From contig OY969790.1 in NCBI GenBank assembly GCA_963703125.1, forward strand, positions 2,575,832 to 2,639,831: DNA of 64,000 nucleotides, written 5' to 3'. Below the pieces are notes generated by a model. The model had not been told where the DNA came from and did no database searches. It worked only from the letters and a program-made list of their open reading frames with translations. The translations under genes and the position numbers were made by a program. The DNA comes from an uncultured Flavobacteriaceae bacterium. Lineage in GTDB: Bacteria; Bacteroidota; Bacteroidia; Flavobacteriales; Flavobacteriaceae. Shown one piece after another: positions 1 through 47,420 of this stretch; position 1 is the first letter of the stretch; each line of letters opens with the position of its first letter.

Positions 1-678
1 TTTGGCCTTTTTTAATCGGATATCACGATCATGCACTATTCCCGTGACGGCCACCCGGGCACCTGCGGCGCGCGCTACCTCGGCGGACATTAATCCAATG
101 ATCCCACATCCCGTAACTACAACATCTTGGCCTGGTTTGATATTGCATTTGTTGTAAAGGGCATTCACAATGATCGACAAGGGTTCTACCAAGGCACCTT
201 GTGCAGGAGTCAATCCCTCCATTAGATGTACCACACGATCAGACTCCAGCACCACACGCTGACCAAAACCACCATTCCTATGAAAGCCAATAATCTGCTT
301 TTTCGGACAGAGGTTCCATTTGGCAATGCTGCATGCCGGACAATCTTCATCTTGGCAACCCAGCATGGCCAACGGAGTAAAAATATCACCCACTTTGACA
401 TCACCATGGTCACCGGGACCCAATTCCAGAACCTCGGCACTGAACTCATGGCCAATAACCCTGGGACGTTCTACCCAATCAAAGTTTGGTTTCCCGAGCG
501 TAGCACTATTGTCCGAACCGCAAATGCCGGTATATAAAGTCTTGGCCAAAATCTCGCCCTCCTTTAGCTTCGGTATCTCCATTTCTACAACGCTAGTGTT
601 CCTTGTTACCGAACCTTCCGAACCTGGATATATCTTTTCCCTGCCCTGAAGACAAAATCCCTTTATTGATTCACTCAT
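1..678 (-). CDS. Zn-dependent alcohol/polyol dehydrogenase (MDR family); 3' end runs off the window
   Basis: Absent from the ORF track because there is no stop in the window. Manual minus-strand translation from the ATG at 676-678 gives MSESIKGF..LYTGICGSD..VIGHEFSAEV..GCQDEDCPAC..VVVTGCGIIGL. This shows the GHE motif, a Cys-rich Zn motif and a GxGxxG Rossmann motif. Confidence 0.8.
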   Translation of the reverse strand, partial: MSESIKGFCLQGREKIYPGSEGSVTRNTSVVEMEIPKLKEGEILAKTLYTGICGSDNSATLGKPNFDWVERPRVIGHEFSAEVLELGPGDHGDVKVGDIFTPLAMLGCQDEDCPACSIAKWNLCPKKQIIGFHRNGGFGQRVVLESDRVVHLMEGLTPAQGALVEPLSIIVNALYNKCNIKPGQDVVVTGCGIIGLMSAEVARAAGARVAVTGIVHDRDIRLKKAK

Positions 679-757
679 TTTTGTTTATTGTTAACCGTTA
701 TTGGTTGATCGTTTTTTATGGTCTAAGGAAGTTACCACCCACTACATGCACCAACCA

Positions 758-1915
758 CTACTTCCAATGAACCCCTGTATTTTTCCAACTTTTGGATTTG
801 GCCGATTCAAGTACGGCCTCACAAACTTTCTGTGTTTCTTGTGCCTCTTTGAAAGTTGGAGAGCATTGTTTTCCTTCCTCCAAACACTTCAGAAAATCAG
901 CTATTTGATGTACAAAACTGTGTTCATATCCAATAGACAGACCAGGAACCCACCACTTATCCATATACGGATGGTCACCATCGGTAACATGGATAGATCG
1001 CCAGCCACGTTCCTTGGATTCATCTCTGTGATCAAAATATTCCAGACGTGTAAGATCATGCAAATCCCATTTAATGGAAGCATGTTCACCGTTTATTTCA
1101 AATGTATAAAGTGCCTTATGTCCTCGTGCGTATCTCGTTGATTCAAAAACGCCCAGCGAGCCATTATCAAAATGACAGTGGAAGATGCATGCATCGTCAA
1201 TCGTCACTTTCTGAACTTCGCCGGATGCCGTATGCGTTCTTTCTTTAATGAAGGTCTCGGTCATGGCCGAAACATCTTTTATGCCTCCGTTCAACCACAT
1301 GGCGGTATCAATGCAATGTGCCAAAAGATCTCCCGTAACTCCTGAACCGGCAGCATCATTGTCCAGACGCCAAAGCCCTTCGCCACCCTGCGGCAATTCG
1401 GGACTTATGGTCCAATCCTGGAGAAAATTGGCCCGATAATGGAAAATTCTTCCCAGTTTTCCGGCATCTATCAATTGCTTTGCCAAGGTTACGGCAGGCA
1501 GTCGCCTGTAATTGTAATACACCGTATTGGCCACACCTGCTTTTTCCACTGCGTCCACCATGGGCTGTGCTTCGGCAACCGTCCTTGCCAACGGTTTTTC
1601 ACAAAGAATCATTTTTCCTGCCTTAGCAGCCGCTATGGCAATCTCGGCGTGCATATTATTGGGCGTACAGATATCAATTGCATCAATGTCATCCCTTGCA
1701 ATCACCTTGCGCCAGTCCGTTTCCGTGTTTTCGTACCCCCATTGTTCGGCAAAAGCCTTTAGGCGTTCTTCATTGCGGGCACAGACCACCTTCAATACAG
1801 GTCGATAACTTAATTCGGGAAAAAAATCATTGACTCTTTTATATCCATTGGTATGGGTTCGCCCCATGAATCCGTACCCTATTAAACCTATTCTTAGTTC
1901 TTTTTTATTTGACAT
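758..1915 (-). CDS. Gfo/Idh/MocA family oxidoreductase
   Basis: 385-aa ORF. The N-terminal Rossmann motif is [14 protein letters not shown], and EKP is present in LCEKPLA, as is typical for the family. Confidence 0.9.
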
Positions 1916-2005
1916 TATTTCGATTACTAGTTGATCTTATTCGTTGCTGGTTTTTTGTGAATGTTTGACGCTGGCAGGTTGTTATAATCCTGGTCAATTC
2001 ACTAA

Positions 2006-2845
2006 TCACTTCGCTTCATACCACCCGTGCATTTCGCGCACCTTTATCATGGCACCCAAAATATCGTTCCATGTTTTGGGCTTCATCATTACATCATTGG
2101 GAAACATACACCCATCCCAGCAAATATGTTTGAACTTTTTGGTCAATATCCCTTTTTCATCCCGAAGCCAATGGCCCGAATCTACGGCAATATCCAATTT
2201 TCCATTGGGGTCCGAAGCTTGACAATGCCTACCGGTCTTATCATGTGATCCCGAACCGTAAACTGTGCCGTCGTTTTGAGCCACGTGGAAATCAATGGTC
2301 CAAGGGCGAAGCGCGGCACTAACGGTTTTAAGTCCTTCGGTCAAAGTAGCACGATCGTTCCAATCAAAATTTTCGGGTAGTATTCGCTCGTCCGGTTTGT
2401 TATAACCCAATAGGTACAGAAGAGTATGTGCCATATCAGCTTGAAATCCAATATTGGGACGATCAACGGCCTCAAGGGTATTGACCATGGTCTTCCAACC
2501 GTGCATTCCGCCCCAACAAATTTCACCCTCTGCCGCCAATGATTCGCCGTATCCGGCTGCGACATCACATGCTTCACGAAAAGTCTGGGCAATCAGTTTT
2601 GTGTTTCCAGCTGGATCTTTGGCCCAACTTTCTGGATCAACGGAAGAATCGATACGGACGACCCCGTGAGGACGTATTCCCAGTTCCCTTAATTTCTGTC
2701 CAATTTCACACGCCTTGCGAACTTGGGTCACAAACTGCTTTCGTTCCGCTGTGCTACCCATCGCGGAACCACCACCCGTGCCCGCCCAAATAGGGGCGAC
2801 CAGACTTCCAATTTCCAGATTCTTGGCCTGTGCCTTATCGGCCAT
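2006..2845 (-). CDS. Sugar phosphate isomerase/epimerase (xylose-isomerase-like TIM barrel); C-terminal roughly 80 percent of an apparently frameshifted gene
   Basis: 279-aa ORF. The upstream reading frame stays open to 2902, and a matching N-terminal fragment sits in another frame (see 2878-3054). Confidence 0.8.
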
Positions 2846-2877
2846 TTTTTTGATTCCGTCATCTGTGGAATCAATGT

Positions 2878-3054
2878 CTAAATGAGGGTCGCCACGAACA
2901 GGTCAAATCCATCGAATTTAACACCGTTTACTTCCGCATTGGCGGTAAGTTCTATCATAGTGTCGATTGAAATGGGAGGTTCGGAATCTGGTCCTTTTCC
3001 TACCACTCCAGGCCAGGACGCATTGTGGAGTTTGGGGTAATTGTTTGCAGGCAT
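2878..3054 (-). pseudogene. N-terminal fragment (58 aa) of the same TIM-barrel gene, separated from it by a 1-nt frameshift
   Basis: Manual translation from the ATG at 3052-3054 gives [58 protein letters not shown]. The downstream ORF frame reads ..[21 protein letters not shown].. through the same bases. The total span 2006-3054 is 1049 nt, which is not a multiple of 3. Confidence 0.6.
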
Positions 3055-3620
3055 ACTATTAAGATTTTTGATTAAACTTTAAGGTTCAATTGCTTGTTAA
3101 GATAAACAAAGAATATGTATATAACAATATGAAATTTTGGGCGAAGGATGCTGCTCAATCCGCAAAAAACTGCCTCAAAATTTGACAATTTGAACCCATT
3201 GCTACAAATTTAGAGTAGAGCAACCTTTGTACATACCTATATATTGATAAAAGATGATACTTTTTTGCCTCTATTTAGGATTAATTGGGTTTAATCGCTA
3301 TTTTAAGCCTACATATAAATGAAAACACATTCACATTTATAGAACGGACGGTTGTTGAAGCAAAGAAAGTATCAACTTTTAGTAAAAATGAGGAAATGTT
3401 TTGCTTCTTTTCCATCTAGATTTGTTTGTTTTCAGATATACTTAAAATAAAATAGATGCTAATTGTCTAATTAGGTGGTATTTTAAACGTTAATACCTTA
3501 ATACGTTATGAAAATAATTATGATTATCGCAAAAAATGTTTTAAACTTATAGATTCAAATTTGAACTTGTCCTTTGGGCAATTCACTAAACCAATTAACT
3601 TTTTTTAAACAATTTAACCA

Positions 3621-4865
3621 ATGGAAAATACAACCTCTACACTAGCTCCTAATGCCAATAGGCTTTTCTATGCGAGCTGTTTTGCTTTAATTACGACAGC
3701 ATTCTCTTTTAGTATTAGGGCCGGGATCCTCCCTCAATTAGGTGAAGAACTTAGCTTAACCGCCGAGCAATTGGGATATATCAATTCAATGTGGTTTTTA
3801 GGCTTCCCAATTTCAATGGTCATCGGGGGCTTGATTTATCATAAAGTAGGGGGTAAGGCAATCATGCAATTTGCTTTTTTCGCCCACGCCATCGGAATTA
3901 TTATGACTATTTATTCCGGAAGTTATATAGGCTTGTTAATTTCAACATTGTTCATAGGGCTCGGTAACGGTTGTACCGAAGCGGCTTGTAATCCGATGAT
4001 CGCCGATGCCTATGAAGGAACCCGGATGAGTAAAATGATGAATCGTTTTCATATGTGGTTTCCAGGGGGTATAGTTGTGGGTAGTCTTATTTCCAACTTC
4101 ATGACCAAAGGAGGTCTGAGCTGGGAAACCCAAATATGGATCATCATAATTCCGACGTTAATATATGCATATCTGTTTTTTGGCCAACCTTGGCCTAAGG
4201 CAAAAGTTAAAGAAGGCGCTACCCTAGGGGGCAATTTTAAGGCGATGCTTTCACCATTGTTTCTATTTATGGTCGTCTGTATGGCACTTACTGCTGCTAC
4301 GGAATTTATACCTCAGCAATGGTTCAGTTTAATTTTGGCCAAAAGCGGTGCCCAGCCCATGCTTATTTTGGCTTTGGTCACAGGTATAATGGCGGTCGCA
4401 CGTTATTTTGGTGGTGAAATGGTGCATAAGTTCGATCAGACCGGGGTGCTTTTAGGCTCGGCACTATTGGCCACCATAGGGATTTACCTATTCAGCACCC
4501 AAACGGGCATGATGGCCTATGTTGCGGCAATCTTTTTCGCCTTGGGTGTTGCCTATTTCTGGCCTAATATGATAGGATTCATTGCAGATAAAATACCAAA
4601 AAGTGGTGCATTGGGCATGTCCATTCTTGGGGCAGTGGGAATGTTTTCCCAAACCATATTTCAGCCGATAACAGGTCATTGGATCGACCAGGATTTAGAG
4701 GCGGCCGCCGCAAGAGGACTCACTGGTGACGAATTGGAATTGATAGCAGGTCAAGATACGATGCGTACCATTACCATATTTCCGATTATTTTAATAGTAC
4801 TATTTACAATTCTCTATTTCTGGGTTAAAAAGAGGAAAGCGGCTGCTGCAGTTGCTTCATCATAA
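3621..4865 (+). CDS. MFS transporter (sugar/H+ symporter-like)
   Basis: 414-aa hydrophobic ORF with a roughly 12-TM pattern. It is divergent from the oxidoreductase operon. Confidence 0.8.
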   Translation: MENTTSTLAPNANRLFYASCFALITTAFSFSIRAGILPQLGEELSLTAEQLGYINSMWFLGFPISMVIGGLIYHKVGGKAIMQFAFFAHAIGIIMTIYSGSYIGLLISTLFIGLGNGCTEAACNPMIADAYEGTRMSKMMNRFHMWFPGGIVVGSLISNFMTKGGLSWETQIWIIIIPTLIYAYLFFGQPWPKAKVKEGATLGGNFKAMLSPLFLFMVVCMALTAATEFIPQQWFSLILAKSGAQPMLILALVTGIMAVARYFGGEMVHKFDQTGVLLGSALLATIGIYLFSTQTGMMAYVAAIFFALGVAYFWPNMIGFIADKIPKSGALGMSILGAVGMFSQTIFQPITGHWIDQDLEAAAARGLTGDELELIAGQDTMRTITIFPIILIVLFTILYFWVKKRKAAAAVASS

Positions 4866-4924
4866 CCGATGTGTTATAGATGTAATATCAAAACTAAAAC
4901 CTGATAAAGAGCATAGTAATTAAC

Positions 4925-4960
4925 AACCCCTTCCAGGTTATTTGGAGGGGGTTCAATTTT
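4925..4960 (+). terminator. Candidate intrinsic terminator after the MFS gene
   Basis: AACCCCTTCCA (4925-4935) pairs with TGGAGGGGGTT (4943-4953) with one G-T wobble and a 7-nt loop. An A/T-rich tail follows. Confidence 0.5.
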
Positions 4961-4975
4961 AAATAAAGCTGTTCA

Positions 4976-5815
4976 ATGAAAATAGGAATGAACATGTTAC
5001 TCTGGACGAACCATGTCACAGAAGCCCATTTTAATATTGTTGATACCTTGAAAAAGACAGGATATGATGGCATAGAACTGTTTTTAGGCGAGGGCGATGT
5101 ATCCCATTATTCAAAGTTGGGGAACCATTTTTCAAGCATTGGAATGGGAGTCACGGCGGTCGCAAGCTTGGCCCTTGAAGAAAATATTGCGAGTCCGGAT
5201 AAGAAAATACGTGGGGCCGGATTGGATAAACTAAAATGGTCCATTGACGTTGCCAAGGCTGCCAATGTTGAAGTAATATGTGGCCCTTTTCATTCCAGTT
5301 TCGCCTATTTTACACGACAACCTCCGACCGATGTTGAATGTAATTGGAGTATTGAAATGCTACAAAAGGCCGCAGAATATGCGCAAAGCGCCAATATTAT
5401 CCTCGCCCCTGAGGCACTGAACCGTTTTGAGTGCTACCTTTACAATACAATGGCCGATTTACGTACACTGGTCCAGAAGGTCAATCACCCTAACTTAGGG
5501 GCGATGTACGACACACACCACAGTAATATTGAGGAAAAGAGCCAGGCAACAGCAATTAAGACCATCGCACCTTACTTACGTCATGTACATATTAGTGAGA
5601 ACGACCGAGGGACACCGGGAAGCGGTCAAGTAAATTGGATCGATGTATTCAAAACACTCAATGAAATAAGGTACGATGGCTGGTTGACCATTGAAGCCTT
5701 TAGCACTATTATACCTGAGTTTGCCAATGCCATCAATGTATGGCGCGATTATTCGCCTTCCGAGGAGATATATACAAGGGGTCTGGCTTTTATAAAAGAG
5801 GGAATGGGAGTGTAG
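4976..5815 (+). CDS. Ketose 3-epimerase-like sugar isomerase/epimerase (TIM barrel)
   Basis: 279 aa. A metal-binding tetrad pattern is recognisable in PEALNRFE, YDTHH, HVHISENDRG and TIEAF. Confidence 0.8.
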   Translation: MKIGMNMLLWTNHVTEAHFNIVDTLKKTGYDGIELFLGEGDVSHYSKLGNHFSSIGMGVTAVASLALEENIASPDKKIRGAGLDKLKWSIDVAKAANVEVICGPFHSSFAYFTRQPPTDVECNWSIEMLQKAAEYAQSANIILAPEALNRFECYLYNTMADLRTLVQKVNHPNLGAMYDTHHSNIEEKSQATAIKTIAPYLRHVHISENDRGTPGSGQVNWIDVFKTLNEIRYDGWLTIEAFSTIIPEFANAINVWRDYSPSEEIYTRGLAFIKEGMGV

Positions 5816-5885
5816 GTTGGCAGTTGGCGTTTTGGATTTAGGAGTTTTTAATTCTAATTTCGTCTTAACATTTTAACATATAGCG

Positions 5886-7001
5886 ATGATAAAAAAAATA
5901 GGCCTTTTGATACTTGCTTTACTTCTCTTTGCTTGTGGAGGTAAGAAGGAGGCAGAAAAGATTGTTATAAGCCAAGTTGAACCTCCAAAAGAGTGGTTGG
6001 TTTTTGATGGGTCTGATGCAAATGCCAAGCGAATTGTTTTCATTTCCGGGGATGAGGAGTACAGGTCCGAAGAGGGTTTACCGCAATTGGCCAAGATTCT
6101 TTCGAGGCATTACGGATTTAACTGTACCGTATTGTTTGCTCAAGATCCGGAAAATCCAGGAATCATAGACCCGAACTATACAAAAAATATTCCGGGACTG
6201 AATGAGCTTACCTCCGCCGATATGATGATTATTCAGACCCGTTTTAGAGCGCTCCCAGATTCACAAATGCAGTATATAGACGATTATTTAAAGGCGGGAA
6301 AACCGGTTTTGGGCATCCGTACTGCTACCCATGCGTTCAATTTTGATTCCGATTCCACCTCCAACTTTGTGCACTACGGCAATTATTACAAAGGAGACAA
6401 AGCAGAATGGAAAGATGGTTTTGGTCGATTCGTTCTAGGGGAAAATTGGGTCAATCATCATGGGCATCACAAACACCAAAGTACACGGGGAATTATTGTG
6501 GAAAGTGAGAAAACAAACCCAATAACCAACGGATTGCATGATAACGATATTTGGTGCGCCACCGATGTATATGGCGTGCGATTGCCATTGCCTGGAGACA
6601 GCAAACCAATTATTTTGGGACAAGTTGTAAATAGGGCGGGAAAGTATGATGAAAGGGATTTGTTTTACGGCATGAAACCTTCAGATATTGAAATTGCCGA
6701 CAAAAACAGTGAAGGAATGGCCTTGAATAATCCTATGATGCCGGTTGCATGGACCAAAACATATAAACTTCAAAACGGTAATGTGGGCAAGATATTTACT
6801 ACGACGATGGGCTCGGCCACCGATTTGCTTAATGAGGGCGTTCGTAGATTAATTGTCAATGGAGTTTTGTGGGCAATGGATTTGGAAGTGCCTGCAAAAG
6901 CCAATGTTGATTTGGTACAACCCTATAAACCTTCTTCCTTTGGTTTCAAAACCGATGAGTATTGGTCGGAAAAGAAGTTGCGAGTAACTGATTTGGAATA
7001 G
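5886..7001 (+). CDS. ThuA-like / class-I glutamine-amidotransferase-fold lipoprotein
   Basis: 371 aa with a lipobox in LLLFACGG. IVFISGDEEYRSEEGLPQLA resembles ThuA-like domains as I recall them. The family call is not verified by any search. Confidence 0.5.
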   Translation: MIKKIGLLILALLLFACGGKKEAEKIVISQVEPPKEWLVFDGSDANAKRIVFISGDEEYRSEEGLPQLAKILSRHYGFNCTVLFAQDPENPGIIDPNYTKNIPGLNELTSADMMIIQTRFRALPDSQMQYIDDYLKAGKPVLGIRTATHAFNFDSDSTSNFVHYGNYYKGDKAEWKDGFGRFVLGENWVNHHGHHKHQSTRGIIVESEKTNPITNGLHDNDIWCATDVYGVRLPLPGDSKPIILGQVVNRAGKYDERDLFYGMKPSDIEIADKNSEGMALNNPMMPVAWTKTYKLQNGNVGKIFTTTMGSATDLLNEGVRRLIVNGVLWAMDLEVPAKANVDLVQPYKPSSFGFKTDEYWSEKKLRVTDLE

Positions 7002-7672
7002 AATCAACCTCTTCTTATTATAAAAAATCCACCAATAAAGATTCTTTTAGTCTAAATTTCCTATAAAGCATGAATAATAGCTTGATATGATTTTCAAAAA
7101 AAATCAAATAGTTTTAGGTATTTAGGAAACTGAGGTCAAAAGCGTTAAGTTCATTTTTCATTTAAGTGCTTTAAAGAATATTTATGCTTCGGTGATTTTT
7201 CGATAATTTATTGAGAAATTTTGCATAAAGCCTTGAAACATAAAAAACGATTAAATTTTCAAGGTACAAGCTATGTTATTATAAGACTTGTGAAATATCC
7301 CCTTATCATATATGAATTTCTTACTCCTTTTGAAAGAAAATGTATTGAGTTTAACTTAGCTTGACAATTTATTTACCATTAATCAATATTTGACCATTTT
7401 TGGGACAAATGGAACGCCCGTTCATCGATTGGCTCCGCAATATCGGTAATTGACAGATAATCGATAAACGGTGCATAATAACGAAATAACTATATCTACC
7501 CTGAAAAACCAAGTACATTTATCGATGAAATGCTTTGATGGCAATTTCATTTTCTTCCCCCATTAAAATTAACTTGAATTATTTCGAAAAGGAAAATCCT
7601 ATATATAGAGAGCCTATTGAAATAATTTATTTTCACAATAAATCAAAAATCAGGTTAACAAATGCCAAACCA

Positions 7673-9043
7673 ATGACCAATGTGCTACTATTAACTTCCA
7701 ATATTTATTTCTTGGCAATTTTTTCGGCTGTAATGACATTTCTGGTGTCTACCAAGATACCTTTATATCCGGTAATTATCTATGTTGCCGAAAAAAAGAA
7801 ACTAATGGATGTGCCCTTGGAGCGTAGTGCCCATAGCACTCAGGTTCCGAATCTGGGAGGTTTGGGATTGTTCATAACGTTCTCCTTGACCCTGATAGTC
7901 CTAAGTCTTATGACAGATTTGTCTTCGGTGGATTTGATAAAGATCAATGCGCTCATGGCATCGACCATTATCCTTTTATTTTTGGGAATAAAGGATGATT
8001 TAGTCCTGATATCACCACTAAAAAAACTTATAGGTCAATTAGTTTCGGCCGCAATTGTTATTTTCTTATCCGATGTACGTATAGTTAGTCTTGAAGGTCT
8101 CCTGGGTATTGGTGAATTGCCCTATTTTTTATCCGTTGTGTTTTCTGCTTTTGTCTTTATTTTGGTCATCAACGCTATTAATCTCATTGATGGCATTGAT
8201 GGTTTGGCCGCTTCCATGGCAATAGTTGCAAGTTCTGTTTTTGGATTTTTCTTTATTGTCAATGGCCACTACCTGATGACGCTAGTGTCATTTATTTTAG
8301 TTGGTGCACTCGCTGGTTTTTTGAAATATAATTTATCGAAGTCGCATAAAATATTCATGGGCGATTGTGGCTCTATGCTAGTCGGATTCTTATTGGCATA
8401 CCAAGGAATGAATTTTTTAATATATAATTCCCTAGAAACATCTACGCACTCCCTAACAAATGCCCCAATAATCCTATTAGCGATTTTATCATTTCCCCTC
8501 TTGGATACTTTGAGAGTATTCGCAATACGGATAAGGCAAAAACGCAGTCCGTTTAGTGCCGATCGCAATCATATCCACCATCGACTTTTGAATTTGGGAT
8601 TTACCCATATTAATGCAACGCTGCTACTCTCCGTTTGTGCGATTTTCACTATTGGTATAGGGCTTTCCTTAGAAGGGTTGAATTTGCATCTTCAGCTACT
8701 GTTTATTGTTTGCTCAGGTATTTTACTCTATTTATTTCCATTTTTGAAGATATTTGATAGAAGGAAATACTTAAATCTTCAATCGCAAGTGCAGGCCAAA
8801 GTTTCCAAAACCATGGAAGGAATAAAAATCAGCGAAACTATAATGCAATCTCCAGAAAATATAAATAGCGGAAAGGGGTATACAGGTGACATTGTAGTCG
8901 AAGTATTTACCAAATCTGCGAACAACGGTAATAATGGTGAAGTAAAGGAAAAGGTTACAAGCAATCCCAAAATACTATCCAATAGACATACTGTGGTCAG
9001 TGAATTGACGAAATCCCCAAAAAAAGAGAATATTCAATTTTGA
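7673..9043 (+). CDS. Polyprenyl-phosphate HexNAc-1-phosphate transferase (MraY/WecA family, GT4 superfamily) with a roughly 100-aa hydrophilic C-terminal tail
   Basis: The ORF is open from 7535. Family-like sequence begins at MTNVLLL (ATG 7673). The protein is multi-TM, and INAINLIDGIDGLA and MGDCGS motifs are present. Confidence 0.8.
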   Translation: MTNVLLLTSNIYFLAIFSAVMTFLVSTKIPLYPVIIYVAEKKKLMDVPLERSAHSTQVPNLGGLGLFITFSLTLIVLSLMTDLSSVDLIKINALMASTIILLFLGIKDDLVLISPLKKLIGQLVSAAIVIFLSDVRIVSLEGLLGIGELPYFLSVVFSAFVFILVINAINLIDGIDGLAASMAIVASSVFGFFFIVNGHYLMTLVSFILVGALAGFLKYNLSKSHKIFMGDCGSMLVGFLLAYQGMNFLIYNSLETSTHSLTNAPIILLAILSFPLLDTLRVFAIRIRQKRSPFSADRNHIHHRLLNLGFTHINATLLLSVCAIFTIGIGLSLEGLNLHLQLLFIVCSGILLYLFPFLKIFDRRKYLNLQSQVQAKVSKTMEGIKISETIMQSPENINSGKGYTGDIVVEVFTKSANNGNNGEVKEKVTSNPKILSNRHTVVSELTKSPKKENIQF

Positions 9044-9145
9044 AATAAGAACGGTTCATTGGAATTGTACCGCTCATTTTCTGCGCGATGGTAAAAAAAT
9101 TTGGCTCACAGCTCAAATACAAAGAAAATAATTAAGTAGTATAAG

Positions 9146-10021
9146 ATGAAAGGAATAATACTGGCGGGAGGATCAGGCACAAGACTTTACCCTATAACCC
9201 TATCCGTAAGCAAGCAGTTATTGCCTGTTTATGATAAGCCAATGATATATTATCCTCTTTCAGTTTTGATGATAGCGGGGATTCGAGACATTCTAATAAT
9301 AACAACGCCCCATGATCAAAAATCCTTTATTAATTTGTTGGGCGACGGCTCTCAGGTTGGATGTAAATTTCAGTATGCCATACAGCCCGAACCCAATGGT
9401 TTGGCTGAAGCTTTTATTATTGGAGAGGATTTCATCGGTAAAGATAAAGTGGCCCTTATTTTAGGGGATAATATTTTTTATGGCAGTGGGTTGGGGAAAT
9501 TGCTTCGTAGTAAAACTGATATCGAGGGTGCTTCAATTTTCGCTTATCCCGTCAATGACCCTGAACGGTACGGCGTAATAGAATTTGATAAAAATGAAAA
9601 GGCTCTAAGTATAGAAGAAAAGCCAAAACACCCAAAATCTTCTTATGCAGTTCCCGGGCTGTATTTTTATGACAACAAAGTGATTGAATATGCCAAACAA
9701 GTCCAACCATCGGCAAGAGGAGAAAAAGAAATCACAACGCTCAATCAATTGTATCTTAAAACGGGGAAATTGGAAGTGGGTGTTATGACCAGGGGAATGG
9801 CCTGGCTGGATACTGGAACAGTAGATGCAATGGATGACGCTTCCGAATTTGTAAGGGTAATGGAGAAGCGAACCGGAACTAAAATTGCATGTATTGAGGA
9901 AATAGCGTATTTGTATGGCTATATAAACAAGGAACAGGCGATTGAAGCTTCTAAGAGGTATGAGAAGAGCGGATATGGCGAATACATTAGAAAGGTTATT
10001 TCAACAGAATGGAAAAAGTAA
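9146..10021 (+). CDS. rfbA: Glucose-1-phosphate thymidylyltransferase
   Basis: MKGIILAGGSGTRLYPIT at the N-terminus, and the 291-aa length is typical of RmlA. Confidence 0.95.
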   Translation: MKGIILAGGSGTRLYPITLSVSKQLLPVYDKPMIYYPLSVLMIAGIRDILIITTPHDQKSFINLLGDGSQVGCKFQYAIQPEPNGLAEAFIIGEDFIGKDKVALILGDNIFYGSGLGKLLRSKTDIEGASIFAYPVNDPERYGVIEFDKNEKALSIEEKPKHPKSSYAVPGLYFYDNKVIEYAKQVQPSARGEKEITTLNQLYLKTGKLEVGVMTRGMAWLDTGTVDAMDDASEFVRVMEKRTGTKIACIEEIAYLYGYINKEQAIEASKRYEKSGYGEYIRKVISTEWKK

Positions 10022-45239: not shown

Positions 45240-46283
45240 TTATAGGGCAATTACTTTTCTCATATTATTGCTTTCCATGGCGGCCTCTATCACTTTAATG
45301 ACATTCATTCCATCAGTTCCGGTAACTGGAACGGGTTTTCCATTTCTTAGTGCATCATAAATTCCATCGTAATATTCCATATAATTTCCTGGCAAAGAAG
45401 GAATGAGCTCTCTGCTAATTTTTCCATTTTTCACCGTATGTAAAAGTCCTTTTGCGGACTCAGGTTCTACTCCCCAATCGGATGTTCCCGGTATTTTTCC
45501 GGCTTGAAGTGCCTTTTCCTGTACATCGGATTTTGATTTTATAAAAGAACCTTTGGTGCCGTGTAAAATATTTCCCGGCAATGCTTCACGCACAAAGTAA
45601 CTAGACTTTAAGATGACCCGATGGGTATCATAGAACAATTTCAAATCAAAATAGTCCACGACTTTTGAGTTTGGGCGATTTGTGGCCAAGTCGGCAAATA
45701 CGGCCTTGGGCATTCCAAAGAATACCAGTGCTTGGTCAATAAGATGGGAACCAAGGTCGTACAGACTTCCGACTCCTTCGGTTGAAGTTTCTTTGTGAAC
45801 CTTATAGCTTAAATTGGGTTCAAATCGATCGTAATGTAGTTCGGCTTCAATGATTTTTCCGATCCAACCCTCATCCAATATTTTTTTAACGGTCCTAAAG
45901 TCGCTGTCATATCTTCGATTATGATATACGGAGAGCATTACATTTTTTTCTTTGGCCAGATCAATTAATTCTTTTGCCTGGACCGTGGTTGCTGTGAAAG
46001 GCTTTTCGACAATTACATTTTTACCTGAATCAATGACTTGCTTTGTAAATTCATAATGGGTAACACTGGGTGTGTTTACCACGACCAATTCTATAGTGTC
46101 GTCCGCCAACATTTCCTCCAAGGAACGAAACGTTCTTATTTTAGGGTATTTTGACCTTGCGTTATGTTTGGTTCTTTCCCATACACCGTATAAATTAAAT
46201 TCGGGATGCAATTCAATAAAAGGGGCATGAAAAATATTTCCGCTCATCCCAAAAGAGCAAAGGGCCGTATTTATAGGTTGCAT
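45240..46283 (-). CDS. Gfo/Idh/MocA family oxidoreductase
   Basis: 347 aa with EKPF in VIVEKPFT and an N-terminal Rossmann fold. Confidence 0.9.
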   Translation of the reverse strand: MQPINTALCSFGMSGNIFHAPFIELHPEFNLYGVWERTKHNARSKYPKIRTFRSLEEMLADDTIELVVVNTPSVTHYEFTKQVIDSGKNVIVEKPFTATTVQAKELIDLAKEKNVMLSVYHNRRYDSDFRTVKKILDEGWIGKIIEAELHYDRFEPNLSYKVHKETSTEGVGSLYDLGSHLIDQALVFFGMPKAVFADLATNRPNSKVVDYFDLKLFYDTHRVILKSSYFVREALPGNILHGTKGSFIKSKSDVQEKALQAGKIPGTSDWGVEPESAKGLLHTVKNGKISRELIPSLPGNYMEYYDGIYDALRNGKPVPVTGTDGMNVIKVIEAAMESNNMRKVIAL

Positions 46284-46391
46284 AGGTTTGGTTTAAAAAA
46301 ACGATATGGAAAGTTAACCATAAAAGAGGAATTTGAATTTACTATTGCGGCATCATAAGATTTAGGGGCATTGAATTCTCCAAGACATAAC

Positions 46392-46416
46392 AAAAAACCA
46401 CCCGAAGGTGGTTTTT
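46392..46416. terminator. Bidirectional terminator-like hairpin (A6-CCACC-CGAA-GGTGG-T5)
   Basis: Perfect stem with a CGAA tetraloop. It is flanked by A and T runs. Confidence 0.5.
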
Positions 46417-46685
46417 GAAATAGAGCCGGAAGGATTACCCTGCGGTGCTCCTAAATGGCTGCCAATGCTGCAAATAAAAATACCCATCGCTATCACGATG
46501 GGCATTTAAAATCATTCAAAAACGTTCAAACAAGCTTGGCCTTTTTGAATGCCTTTAGCCGCACGGTATTTTTGAGTGTCGTGGAGCTGGAGACGGCCGA
46601 GCGTATAGAAAATGCCCGGTGGGCATTTTCAGCGAAGGAGCGAGCCGGCGCACTGGCGTTCGACTCCCGCTGGCGTAATGAACAA

Positions 46686-46707
46686 AGCCACCCGAAGGTG
46701 GCTTTTT
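46686..46707 (+). terminator. Intrinsic terminator hairpin (AGCCACC-CGAA-GGTGGCT followed by a T-run)
   Basis: Perfect 7-bp stem with the same tetraloop as 46392-46416. A T run reaches 46707. Confidence 0.55.
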
Positions 46708-46928
46708 GAGTGGAGCCGGAGGGTCTAGAACCTAGTTCTTAAAACCGTTATATATAAGGCGTTTTAAGAGTTTTAATTTTTATGCTCACCGAATAGGTGA
46801 CTTTGTCTGAATAAGAGTTATATCTACAAAGACAAATAATTGCAATACATGGTTTTTGAAAACTGTAGTAATCTAAATACCATTTAATTAAATCTATTAG
46901 CCATACTGTTGCACTACATTAAATATTG

Positions 46929-46961
46929 ATTCGTCTATACAAATCTTCCATTCGACTATAC
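46929..46961 (+). promoter_or_regulatory. Phased direct repeats ATTCGTCTATAC / ATTCGACTATAC (21-nt period); candidate LytTR-type operator
   Basis: The two repeats are 11/12 identical and lie 58-90 nt upstream of the ATG at 47019. Confidence 0.45.
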
Positions 46962-47018
46962 TTGTCTATTTTTTGAATCGAATAATTAGTAATTTGTGTT
47001 ATAGATTAATACTCAAAG

Positions 47019-47420
47019 ATGAATATACTATTAATAGAAGACGATCAAATAGAAGTAATGAAGTTGCAAAGAACAGTTTCAAAACTTGGCTTAAAGCATA
47101 CAATTGTTGAAGCTAAAAATGGTGAAGATGCCTTAGAAATTCTTCAATCTGGTCAAAAATTACCTGATATTATTCTTTTGGATTTAAATATGCCGAGAAT
47201 GAACGGAATAGAATTTTTGGATATTTTAAAAAATGACAATCAATTAAAATATTTGCCCACAATAATATTGACAACATCTGAAAATAGGGCAGACTTGCTA
47301 AAATGTTATGAGGCAGGAATTGCTGGATACGTTGTAAAGCCTTTAAAATACGAAGATTACGAATCTAAAATGAGGAAATTAATGGACTACTGGGAAGTAA
47401 ATCAACTGGTTAAAGGCTAA
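47019..47420 (+). CDS. Single-domain response regulator (CheY-like receiver)
   Basis: 133 aa with EDD at the N-terminus, the phospho-acceptor context IILLDLNMP, and VVKP. Confidence 0.9.
   Translation: MNILLIEDDQIEVMKLQRTVSKLGLKHTIVEAKNGEDALEILQSGQKLPDIILLDLNMPRMNGIEFLDILKNDNQLKYLPTIILTTSENRADLLKCYEAGIAGYVVKPLKYEDYESKMRKLMDYWEVNQLVKG

Follow-up and report, generated by a model that had tools for sequence, protein, structure and literature searches.

Attachment-site scars at ssrA: a probable record of serial DNA integration in a marine flavobacterium

A guanine–cytosine (GC)-rich, hairpin-dense patch of intergenic DNA in an uncultured Flavobacteriaceae bacterium is very probably a set of attachment-site (att) scars left by serial integration at ssrA, the gene for transfer-messenger RNA (tmRNA), and would mark the far, attR-type border of DNA that was integrated stepwise. 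The patch (positions 46392 to 46740) lies in a window of 64,000 nucleotides (nt), which is the whole stretch of DNA analyzed here (contig OY969790.1 of assembly GCA_963703125.1, positions 2,575,832 to 2,639,831). It occupies a 735-nt gap between a gene for a GFO/IDH/MocA oxidoreductase (45240–46283, minus strand) and a response-regulator gene (from 47019, plus strand), in a genome of 4.04 Mb assembled as a single contig with a GC content of 39.7%. The genomes used for comparison, designated by G numbers, all belong to other genera of the same family, with no congeneric genome in the set.

ARAGORN found a single tmRNA gene in the genome, ssrA at c[2652858,2653255] (window-relative 77027–77424, minus strand, tag peptide GENNYALAA), 30.3 kb to the right of the region and beyond the window edge. 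Read on the plus strand, the end of ssrA is GGTGGAGCCGGAGGGAGTCGAACCC. The 14-mer GTGGAGCCGGAGGG has exactly two occurrences in the 4.04 Mb, against 0.03 expected, one at this live 3′ end and the other at 46710. Six further copies of the ssrA end were located, at 46420, 46581, 46710, ~68852, ~68983, and ~69149, which retain 9 to 12 of the 12 core bases; the copies at 46581, 68852, and 68983 have at most one mismatch in the 12-base core, and those at 46420 and 69149 have three. All six share one strand and a direct orientation and lie 3′ of ssrA at distances of up to 30.6 kb, and each is preceded on the plus strand by a hairpin and a T-run. Thus, what the initial annotation, made from the letters of the window, had called duplicated terminator modules are successive ssrA tails, each consisting of an ssrA 3′ end and then a terminator, and one of its strings resembling transfer RNA (tRNA), TGGAGCCGGAGGG, is the exact 3′ end of the host tmRNA gene. 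Two marks of an Islander-type border are present here, namely an intact target on the replicon and a displaced 3′ fragment in direct orientation, and the copy at 46710 is the attR-type junction of the integrated DNA on its right.

The same annotation had considered decayed, tRNA-derived att remnants of an excised element. This was essentially right as to the att remnants; their source is ssrA rather than a tRNA gene, and the elements are still integrated, with 30.6 kb lying between the scars and ssrA. A blastn search of the 735-nt gap against the whole genome gave weak matches 22–30 kb to the right, where the sequence proved to be a tmRNA 3′ end in reverse complement; it thus led to the ssrA copies and turned up no dispersed family for the terminator/att repeat, and whole-genome searches placed no copy of the terminator/ssrA-end repeat beyond the 30.6-kb ssrA array.

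Each element that the initial annotation listed was recovered at its stated position: the five hairpins, the 40-nt repeat with a degenerate third copy, and the GC-rich core. Compared with shuffled sequences, the hairpins of the region have z scores of −3.9 to −5.7, except the AT-rich hairpin at 46513–46551, the weakest of the five (z −2.5), reported by a repeat finder as an AT-rich inverted repeat at 46507–46557. The outermost hairpin, T0 (AAAAACCACC/CGAA/GGTGGTTTTT), which in the sense of ssrA comes after the most distal displaced ssrA end, folds at −12.7 kcal/mol (z −3.9), the value for the minus-strand feature being −13.1 kcal/mol (z −4.0). The hairpin at 46478–46507, a 12-bp inverted repeat, folds at −12.5 kcal/mol on the plus and −18.8 kcal/mol on the minus strand, and the one at 46608–46630, a 10-bp perfect inverted repeat (46608–46617/46621–46630), at −14.4 kcal/mol (z −4.7). 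For the hairpin at 46684–46707, bordered on both sides by T-runs or A-runs, the values are −13.7 kcal/mol (plus) and −15.1 kcal/mol (minus). A scan for intrinsic terminators, which combine a GC-containing hairpin with a T-run, predicted minus-strand sites at 46416–46393 and 46507–46478. The 40-nt direct repeat (46394–46433 and 46684–46723) has 83% identity between its copies, and the degenerate third copy is real, at 46569–46594 (repeat families D2 and D7). The GC content of 46579–46680 reaches 62.7% against 39.7% for the genome, where just 1.3% of 100-nt windows reach 58%. The initial annotation had failed to fold any intact tRNA or tmRNA, in agreement with ARAGORN, which called 0 tRNA and 0 tmRNA genes in the 64-kb window. 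Rfam 15 gave zero matches in the window at the gathering threshold, and at E values up to 10 the interval 46200–47050 yielded no tRNA or tmRNA model, only sub-threshold, terminator-driven matches (STnc130, RefA9, RNAI).

The sequences that follow the ssrA-end copies fall into three unit types, X, Y, and Z, arranged in the order Y–X–Z in the window and X–Y–Z in a second array (68852–69160). Between this second array and ssrA, from 69149 to 77029, lies a 7.9-kb island with Pfam matches to ABM, MBL-fold, AraC, a split HipA, and a tyrosine integrase. The integrase has 430 amino acids (aa), an Arm-DNA-bind_5, a SAM_5, and a Phage_integrase domain, and is encoded ~190 nt from ssrA (L001 11548–12840). 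An integrase gene beside the regenerated target is a property of the 7.9-kb island and not of the 22-kb segment, the X units, or the Y units. The HipA reading frame of the island consists of two overlapping open reading frames (ORFs), a 111-aa N-terminal domain and a 340-aa C-terminal kinase domain (L001 8866–10135; window-relative 72866–74135), and the gene is probably frameshifted.

The 22-kb segment, from 46710 to 68852, encodes by Pfam an H-NOX/FIST phosphorelay, a BcsC-like TPR protein, glycosyltransferases, a flippase, and a 1030-aa protein. Pfam scans of the segment, which carries exopolysaccharide and H-NOX genes, detected no integrase. Its GC content is 35.7% against 39.7% for the genome, and its tetranucleotide distance stands at the 95.5th percentile. 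The segment, X, and Y are att-flanked and lack an integrase, as is characteristic of cis-mobilizable elements (CIMEs). In seven other genera, the H-NOX gene was never near ssrA. A truncated copy of a REC-GT2 gene (a partial receiver and the first 55 GT2 positions) sits at the ssrA-proximal end of the segment (L001 4130–4759; window-relative 68130–68759), and this rearrangement scar may explain the missing integrase.

The link between these borders and an integrase comes from the Z arm. The interval 46700–46830 has 71–81% identity to sequences in 12 other genera, and ssrA lies within 1.5 kb in none of the 11 loci fetched; in G024, unrelated cargo stands behind the arm, and in G064 and G279 the arm follows the Y1 trailer, as in this genome. 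Orthologues of the integrase (65–73% identity) are found 27–50 kb from a Z arm, on the same contig and in the expected orientation, in G261, G111, and G112. They lie beside the syntenic AlaDH/PNT-family gene, which implies that they adjoin ssrA. This gene flanks the 5′ side of ssrA in all 15 of 15 genera, the 3′ side being variable. The oxidoreductase gene on the left flank of our region has an orthologue in just one of the 15, not near ssrA. The Z arm is the far end, conserved across genera, of those ssrA islands that bear an integrase of this family. An 18-nt motif (GCTCACCGAATAGGTGAC, also written GTCACCTATTCGGTGAGC) is present in both Z arms and once more in the stretch from the integrase gene to ssrA, so that the core is flanked on both sides in the reconstructed attP. 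The motif is likely the arm-type site of the integrase, and the layout fits an integrase with an arm-binding domain.

The Y unit (ATTACC..GGTG.TCC..., ~162 nt) contains no gene. Its distal arm keeps in relatives a T-arm-like GGAGG/CCTCC stem around a foreign loop. The Y1 body has 72–82% identity to sequences in 10 other genera, in eight of which the match coincides with or adjoins a tmRNA gene called by ARAGORN. In alignment A6, mean column identity is 81%, the junction GTATTTTTGAGTGTC is near-invariant, and TATTTTTG is kept in nine of the 10 genera. This proximity and conservation mark Y1 as the conserved native ssrA trailer, probably a functional one. The host ssrA encodes a terminal CCA (..CTCCACCA), which comes from the copy of the 7.9-kb island (A5 alignment; L001 13027–13424). 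The ssrA genes of 10 other genera end in ..CTCCAC and run straight into an X or Y trailer, so CCA addition is needed there.

The X unit (GAGAC-GGCCGAGCG..., ~130 nt) is likewise gene-less, and its copy in the window spans 46581–46709. X adjoins ssrA in at least 12 genera, and its size is constant there. It is found in tandem in G196 and G275, distal to Y in G052 and G196, and proximal to Y in this window. The terminator hairpin of X stands directly 3′ of ssrA in G019, G196, G137, and others, and is, by prediction, the working ssrA terminator in many genera. Mean pairwise identity of the X body is 0.70 compared with 0.77 for ssrA, and the distances of X and ssrA correlate poorly, with a Spearman coefficient of 0.23. 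The two X copies of the host are 68% alike, whereas the likeness of the window copy to its G196 counterpart is 79%; since the host copies resemble each other less, they were acquired independently and not by local duplication. In G001 and G015, X is split by an insert of ~750 nt (L005 G001:C6 1570–2330; L003 G015:C26 530–1260) whose product, a small protein that looks secreted, contains collagen-like Gly-X-Y repeats, so X ends can bracket cargo.

Two observations bear on whether X and Y move by the integrase of another element: unit order and copy number vary across genera, and X copies of the same genome are not closest relatives. Because of its constant size, variable position and copy number, occasional cargo, and tree incongruence, we infer that X is a small cassette without genes, on which an integrase acts in trans to move it. 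A further-reaching proposal, which we offer tentatively as possible rather than probable, is that X represents a distinct class of ~130-nt gene-less integrative cassette made of an attP and a terminator, which an ssrA-specific tyrosine integrase acting in trans could insert at any ssrA-end core. The structured repeat inside X (described below) would then be a new structured RNA or single-stranded DNA (ssDNA) recognition or accessory part, and X might be transcribed from a promoter at 46544–46574 into an RNA antisense to the tmRNA 3′ end.

To the right of the structured repeat, X holds a box that had looked like a tRNA T-loop. Its sequence, GTTCGACTCCC, matches the T-loop of the host ssrA at 11 of 11 positions and is inverted relative to the ssrA-end copies. 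Its variable base equals the base of the host ssrA in 10 of 10 genera (three C and seven A, with two of the C cases possibly belonging to one X lineage), a match only suggestive of gene conversion or of a shared constraint. RNAalifold on 14 full X units found no cross-genus conserved pairing besides the module introduced below and two hairpins. Stems drawn by hand around the T-loop-like box were dropped, as their registers differ between genomes. The idea that X is a pseudogene resembling a class II tRNA (GGAGAC-GGCCGAGCG...TTCGAATCCC) was also abandoned, with its T-stem unpaired and GGCCGAGCG part of an independent module. Two ORFs of the region, of 84 aa (46455–46709) and 38 aa (46612–46728), were set aside: they cross unit boundaries, and alignments A1 and A6 contain indels of 1–2 nt.

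Most of the GC-rich core is accounted for by a structured interspersed repeat of ~68 nt, the module, which was first recognised through matches to the left half of X far from ssrA. It is defined by a 28-copy alignment (A3), on which RNAalifold predicted its helices: 96.4% of the cells are paired, compensatory changes occur in nine of 16 pairs, and one pair reads C-G in 15 of the copies and G-C in another 11. As a control, none of 500 shuffles was as good, and no slid register came near. The G-U pairs favour the plus strand, which in X is antisense to ssrA. The covariance model R1 found the module in 72 of 151 sampled genera, with one to at least 32 copies per genome; 32 candidates were scored per genome, so the value of at least 32 (G043, G101) is a lower bound. 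No Rfam family matched it, including copies taken from three other genomes. The module also occurs at many sites with unrelated flanks and has the sharp boundaries of a dispersed repeat. The REP-like (repetitive extragenic palindromic) repeat family entertained in the initial annotation therefore holds for this module (46590–46657), a dispersed structured repeat, and not for the 40-nt terminator/att repeat, with zero copies outside the ssrA array.

The contexts of the module are diverse. In the host genome, three more copies (C1 149942–150009, 150844–150913, and 151709–151777) fill short gaps between tandem paralogous genes of ~250 aa (N-terminus MIK.FR..R...L...), in the same orientation as the genes. 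In G077 (L039 C38 428–502) and G268 (L051 C4 1499–1573), the module lies in the 16S–23S ribosomal RNA (rRNA) spacer, 1–3 nt after tRNA-Ile-GAT and before tRNA-Ala, where, its terminator-like hairpin notwithstanding, it must be transcribed as part of the rRNA precursor. A mosaic repeat of ~200 nt in G043 (L108–L123, 16 sites) has the module as one of its blocks and is composed of GTAAACTACCTCGGGGCAAGCCC..., the module, one or two copies of a CCCTGTGAAAT...ATTTCACAAGGG hairpin, and ...TCTCGATGATCGAGTAA. Several of these copies are near-identical, some with identical scores, which points to a recent spread. No terminal inverted repeats or target duplications were visible in the 16 copies, and the literature yielded no relevant description of a flavobacterial repeat or miniature transposable element with inverted repeats (MITE).

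At two other loci, the module accompanies a duplicated gene end. In G051 (L042 C1 1211–1640), a terminator comes after tRNA-Asn, then an inverted module and a displaced fragment of 25 nt from the tRNA-Asn 3′ end, and then a second terminator and two further modules; the arrangement resembles a small insertion built like X at another tRNA gene (tDNA). In G019 (L026 C1 8350–8720, minus-strand view), three tandem units of 116 nt each comprise the last ~50 nt of a yidD-like gene and one module. Judged by its arrangement, this is the design of the ssrA site, a duplicated gene end with a module, at a protein-coding gene. The features of the region are collected in Table 1.

Table 1. Sequence features in and around the intergenic region, in window positions
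Feature	Start	End	Strand	Description
Older X remnant, right half, degenerate	46366	46391	−	GGGGCATTGAATTCTCC..., beside T0; nhmmer profile of 14 X units matches 46367–46437, E 1.2e-5
Hairpin T0, outermost terminator	46393	46416	−	10-bp perfect inverted repeat 46393–46402/46407–46416; minus-strand terminator call
Displaced ssrA 3′-end copy rY	46420	46433	−	ATAGAGCCGGAAGG; 9/12 core bases; orientation as live ssrA end
Y distal arm	46434	46461	−	ATTACCCTGCGGTGCTCC...; retained in region A of the host genome and in G015, G001, G196, G052
Y1 body	46462	46580	−	Terminator 46507–46478 (strong, minus strand), AT-rich hairpin 46513–46551, junction GTATTTTTGAGTGTC
Candidate Bacteroidetes-type promoter	46544	46574	+	TTTG-N19-TATTTTTG; predicted start near 46581
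Displaced ssrA 3′-end copy rX	46581	46594	−	GTGGAGCTGGAGAC; 11/12 core bases
Structured interspersed repeat (module)	46590	46657	+	Three helices including hairpin 46608–46630; most of the GC-rich core
Inverted ssrA T-loop box (GC box)	46653	46675	+	GTTCGACTCCC at 46658–46668
X-unit terminator hairpin	46684	46707	−	AAAGCCACC/CGAA/GGTGGCTTT and T-run; bidirectional
Displaced ssrA 3′-end copy rZ	46710	46723	−	GTGGAGCCGGAGGG; 14/14 against live ssrA end; only other exact copy in the genome
Z arm	46724	46810	−	Starts TCTAGAAC...; 18-nt motif GCTCACCGAATAGGTGAC at 46784–46801, ~60 nt further on
22-kb segment, part in the window	46811	64000 (on to ~68,850)		Enclosed by ssrA-end repeats; Pfam content

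In the history that we propose, with site-specific recombination as the process, each incoming element would bring its own ssrA 3′ end and terminator; ssrA would stay intact, the previous 3′ end and terminator would be pushed outward, and repeated insertion would produce a nested series. Such displacement is known from genomic islands: the attP of an island carries a copy of the 3′ end of the target, and integration regenerates the gene and leaves the old fragment at the opposite island end (PMC4383910). Descriptions also exist of ssrA islands in tandem, with short repeats and with members that lack an integrase (PMC3146451). Read outward from ssrA, the series would begin with the 7.9-kb tyrosine-integrase island and its Z-type end at ~69149, continue with a Y unit and an X unit (68983 and 68852) and the 22-kb integrase-less H-NOX/polysaccharide segment, and pass the Z-type end of that segment (46710), the X unit (46581–46709), and the native trailer Y1 (46462–46580) to reach the older scar at 46420 with the terminator at 46393–46416. 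The region in the window would be the oldest and outermost part. Its hairpins would be terminators that arrived with successive ssrA ends. The 40-nt repeat is a terminator joined to an ssrA end, and the GC-rich core consists of the ~68-nt repeat within X together with the inverted T-loop-like box.

Several points weigh against this history. Excision or circular forms of the elements were not observed, and no empty site or presence/absence polymorphism was shown in a comparison set without a same-genus genome. The compositional signal of the 22-kb segment is only moderate, at the percentile given above, and neither this segment nor the X and Y units have an integrase of their own. The truncated REC-GT2 fragment shows a later rearrangement. 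Y1 acts less like a mobile unit than like a functional trailer passed on vertically, so not every unit is an inserted element. Lastly, the module also occurs without a visible att repeat, and its presence in X may be a secondary insertion.

Four other explanations were weighed. We consider it improbable, though less so than the remaining three, that the X unit (46581–46707) is a plus-strand small RNA gene transcribed from the promoter at 46544–46574 to the terminator at 46707 and partly antisense to the tmRNA 3′ end; such a gene would be compatible with an origin from att scars. A full-consensus match to TTTG-N19-TAnnTTTG, one of only two in the 64-kb window (2.4 expected by chance), would start transcription at the first base of X, X ends in a hairpin and T-run, the module covaries with G-U pairs that favour the plus strand, and the X body is conserved nearly as well as ssrA. 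The −33 box, however, is unconserved in other genera, and the −7 box, TATTTTTG, coincides with the invariant first bases of the ssrA trailer. Moreover, X has no Rfam match, conserved pairing in the 14 X units is limited to the module and two hairpins, and the module itself is a dispersed repeat in many unrelated contexts.

It is distinctly unlikely that the ssrA-end copies and units were made locally, when the ssrA tail duplicated in tandem or crossed over unequally, with the 22-kb segment arriving through unrelated recombination. The tandem X–X arrays in G196 and G275, the duplication-like appearance of the tandem yidD-end units in G019, and the lack of recombinase genes in the units would all suit such an origin. 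Yet X, Y, and Z are mutually unrelated, the likeness of the host X copies (68%) falls short of that seen between copies of different genera (79%), the unit order differs (ssrA–X–Y here and ssrA–Y–X in G052 and G196), and Z arms are physically linked to the orthologous integrase in three genera.

Less likely still, and largely refuted, is the explanation that the patch is a mere cluster of REP/MITE-like repeats in a long intergenic region, unrelated to integration. The module is truly interspersed, as its presence in 72 of 151 genera, its abundance in G043 and G101 (at least 32 copies each), the ~200-nt mosaic of G043, and the three further modules between tandem genes of the host attest, but the terminator/ssrA-end repeat is confined to the 30.6-kb ssrA array, and these repeats are exact matches to the live ssrA end, run in its direction, and fall at the junctions of an integrase-bearing island. 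Finally, a decayed tRNA or tmRNA gene, or a fragment of a two-piece tmRNA, can practically be set aside: D-loop-like (GGCCGAGCG), T-loop-like (GTTCGACTCCC), and acceptor-like strings are present, yet the ARAGORN and Rfam searches came back empty as reported above, GGCCGAGCG is the start of the dispersed module and pairs within it, the stems beside the T-loop-like box do not pair as read from the sequence, and the genome has one intact ssrA.

One feature of the assembly stands apart from these subjects. The last ~32 kb of contig C1 (4,005,900–4,037,919) has ~70% GC and the first ~10 kb (1–10,000) 52–60%, in a genome of 39.7%. Either a foreign block of high GC spans the junction of the circle, or these ends are an artefact of assembly or contamination.

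For annotation, serial integration at ssrA means that this marine flavobacterium carries its cluster of H-NOX and exopolysaccharide genes in an ssrA-linked composite island, which bears on how the cluster was acquired. The widespread ~68-nt repeat, which is not in Rfam and is present in the rRNA operon transcripts of some genera, is a candidate RNA motif or a candidate recognition site of mobile elements.

The region resembles the Islander/TIGER class of islands at tDNA and tmRNA genes (PMC4383910) in the intact ssrA, the direct-oriented displaced 3′ fragments, the adjoining tyrosine integrase, and the element-borne 3′ end and terminator. Unlike those islands, it has an integrase only in the 7.9-kb member, and its array includes gene-less units of 130–160 nt. 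Islander keeps a candidate, or resolves a tandem member, only when it has an integrase gene of its own, and it also applies a length filter (PMC4383910). Island finders that demand an integrase in every unit, such as Islander, cannot call small conserved gene-less cassettes that would supply the working ssrA terminator in many Flavobacteriaceae. The ssrA islands of Dehalococcoides are similar in that several stand in tandem downstream of ssrA, with short direct repeats of the ssrA end, a conserved sequence by each repeat, and some members without integration genes (PMC3146451). They differ in using the serine recombinase DsiB, a 20-bp repeat, and an insertion point in the T-loop (PMC3146451), whereas here an arm-binding tyrosine recombinase would use the last 12–14 bases as its core, and some units are gene-less.

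In being att-flanked, without recombination genes of their own, and movable only with or via a neighbouring integrase element, the units also recall CIMEs (cited in PMC3146451). CIMEs are kilobase-scale deletion derivatives, whereas X measures ~130 nt, is of constant size in at least 12 genera, and contains little beyond a terminator, a structured repeat, and an att core. CIMEs were first described for the integrative and conjugative elements (ICEs) of streptococci. The module, in turn, is short, hairpin-forming, multi-copy, and intergenic, and forms a mosaic block in G043, much like REP sequences, bacterial interspersed mosaic elements (BIMEs), and MITEs, of which the BIMEs of E. coli and the Correia elements of Neisseria were the types compared. 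In contrast to these, no terminal inverted repeats or target duplications were seen for the module, which is ~85% conserved between genera, adopts a covarying three-helix fold, and lies in rRNA spacers after tRNA-Ile. In summary, ssrA scars of this type are already known; what goes beyond the textbook is that X is a conserved cassette without genes and that it harbours a structured repeat of 68 nt absent from Rfam.

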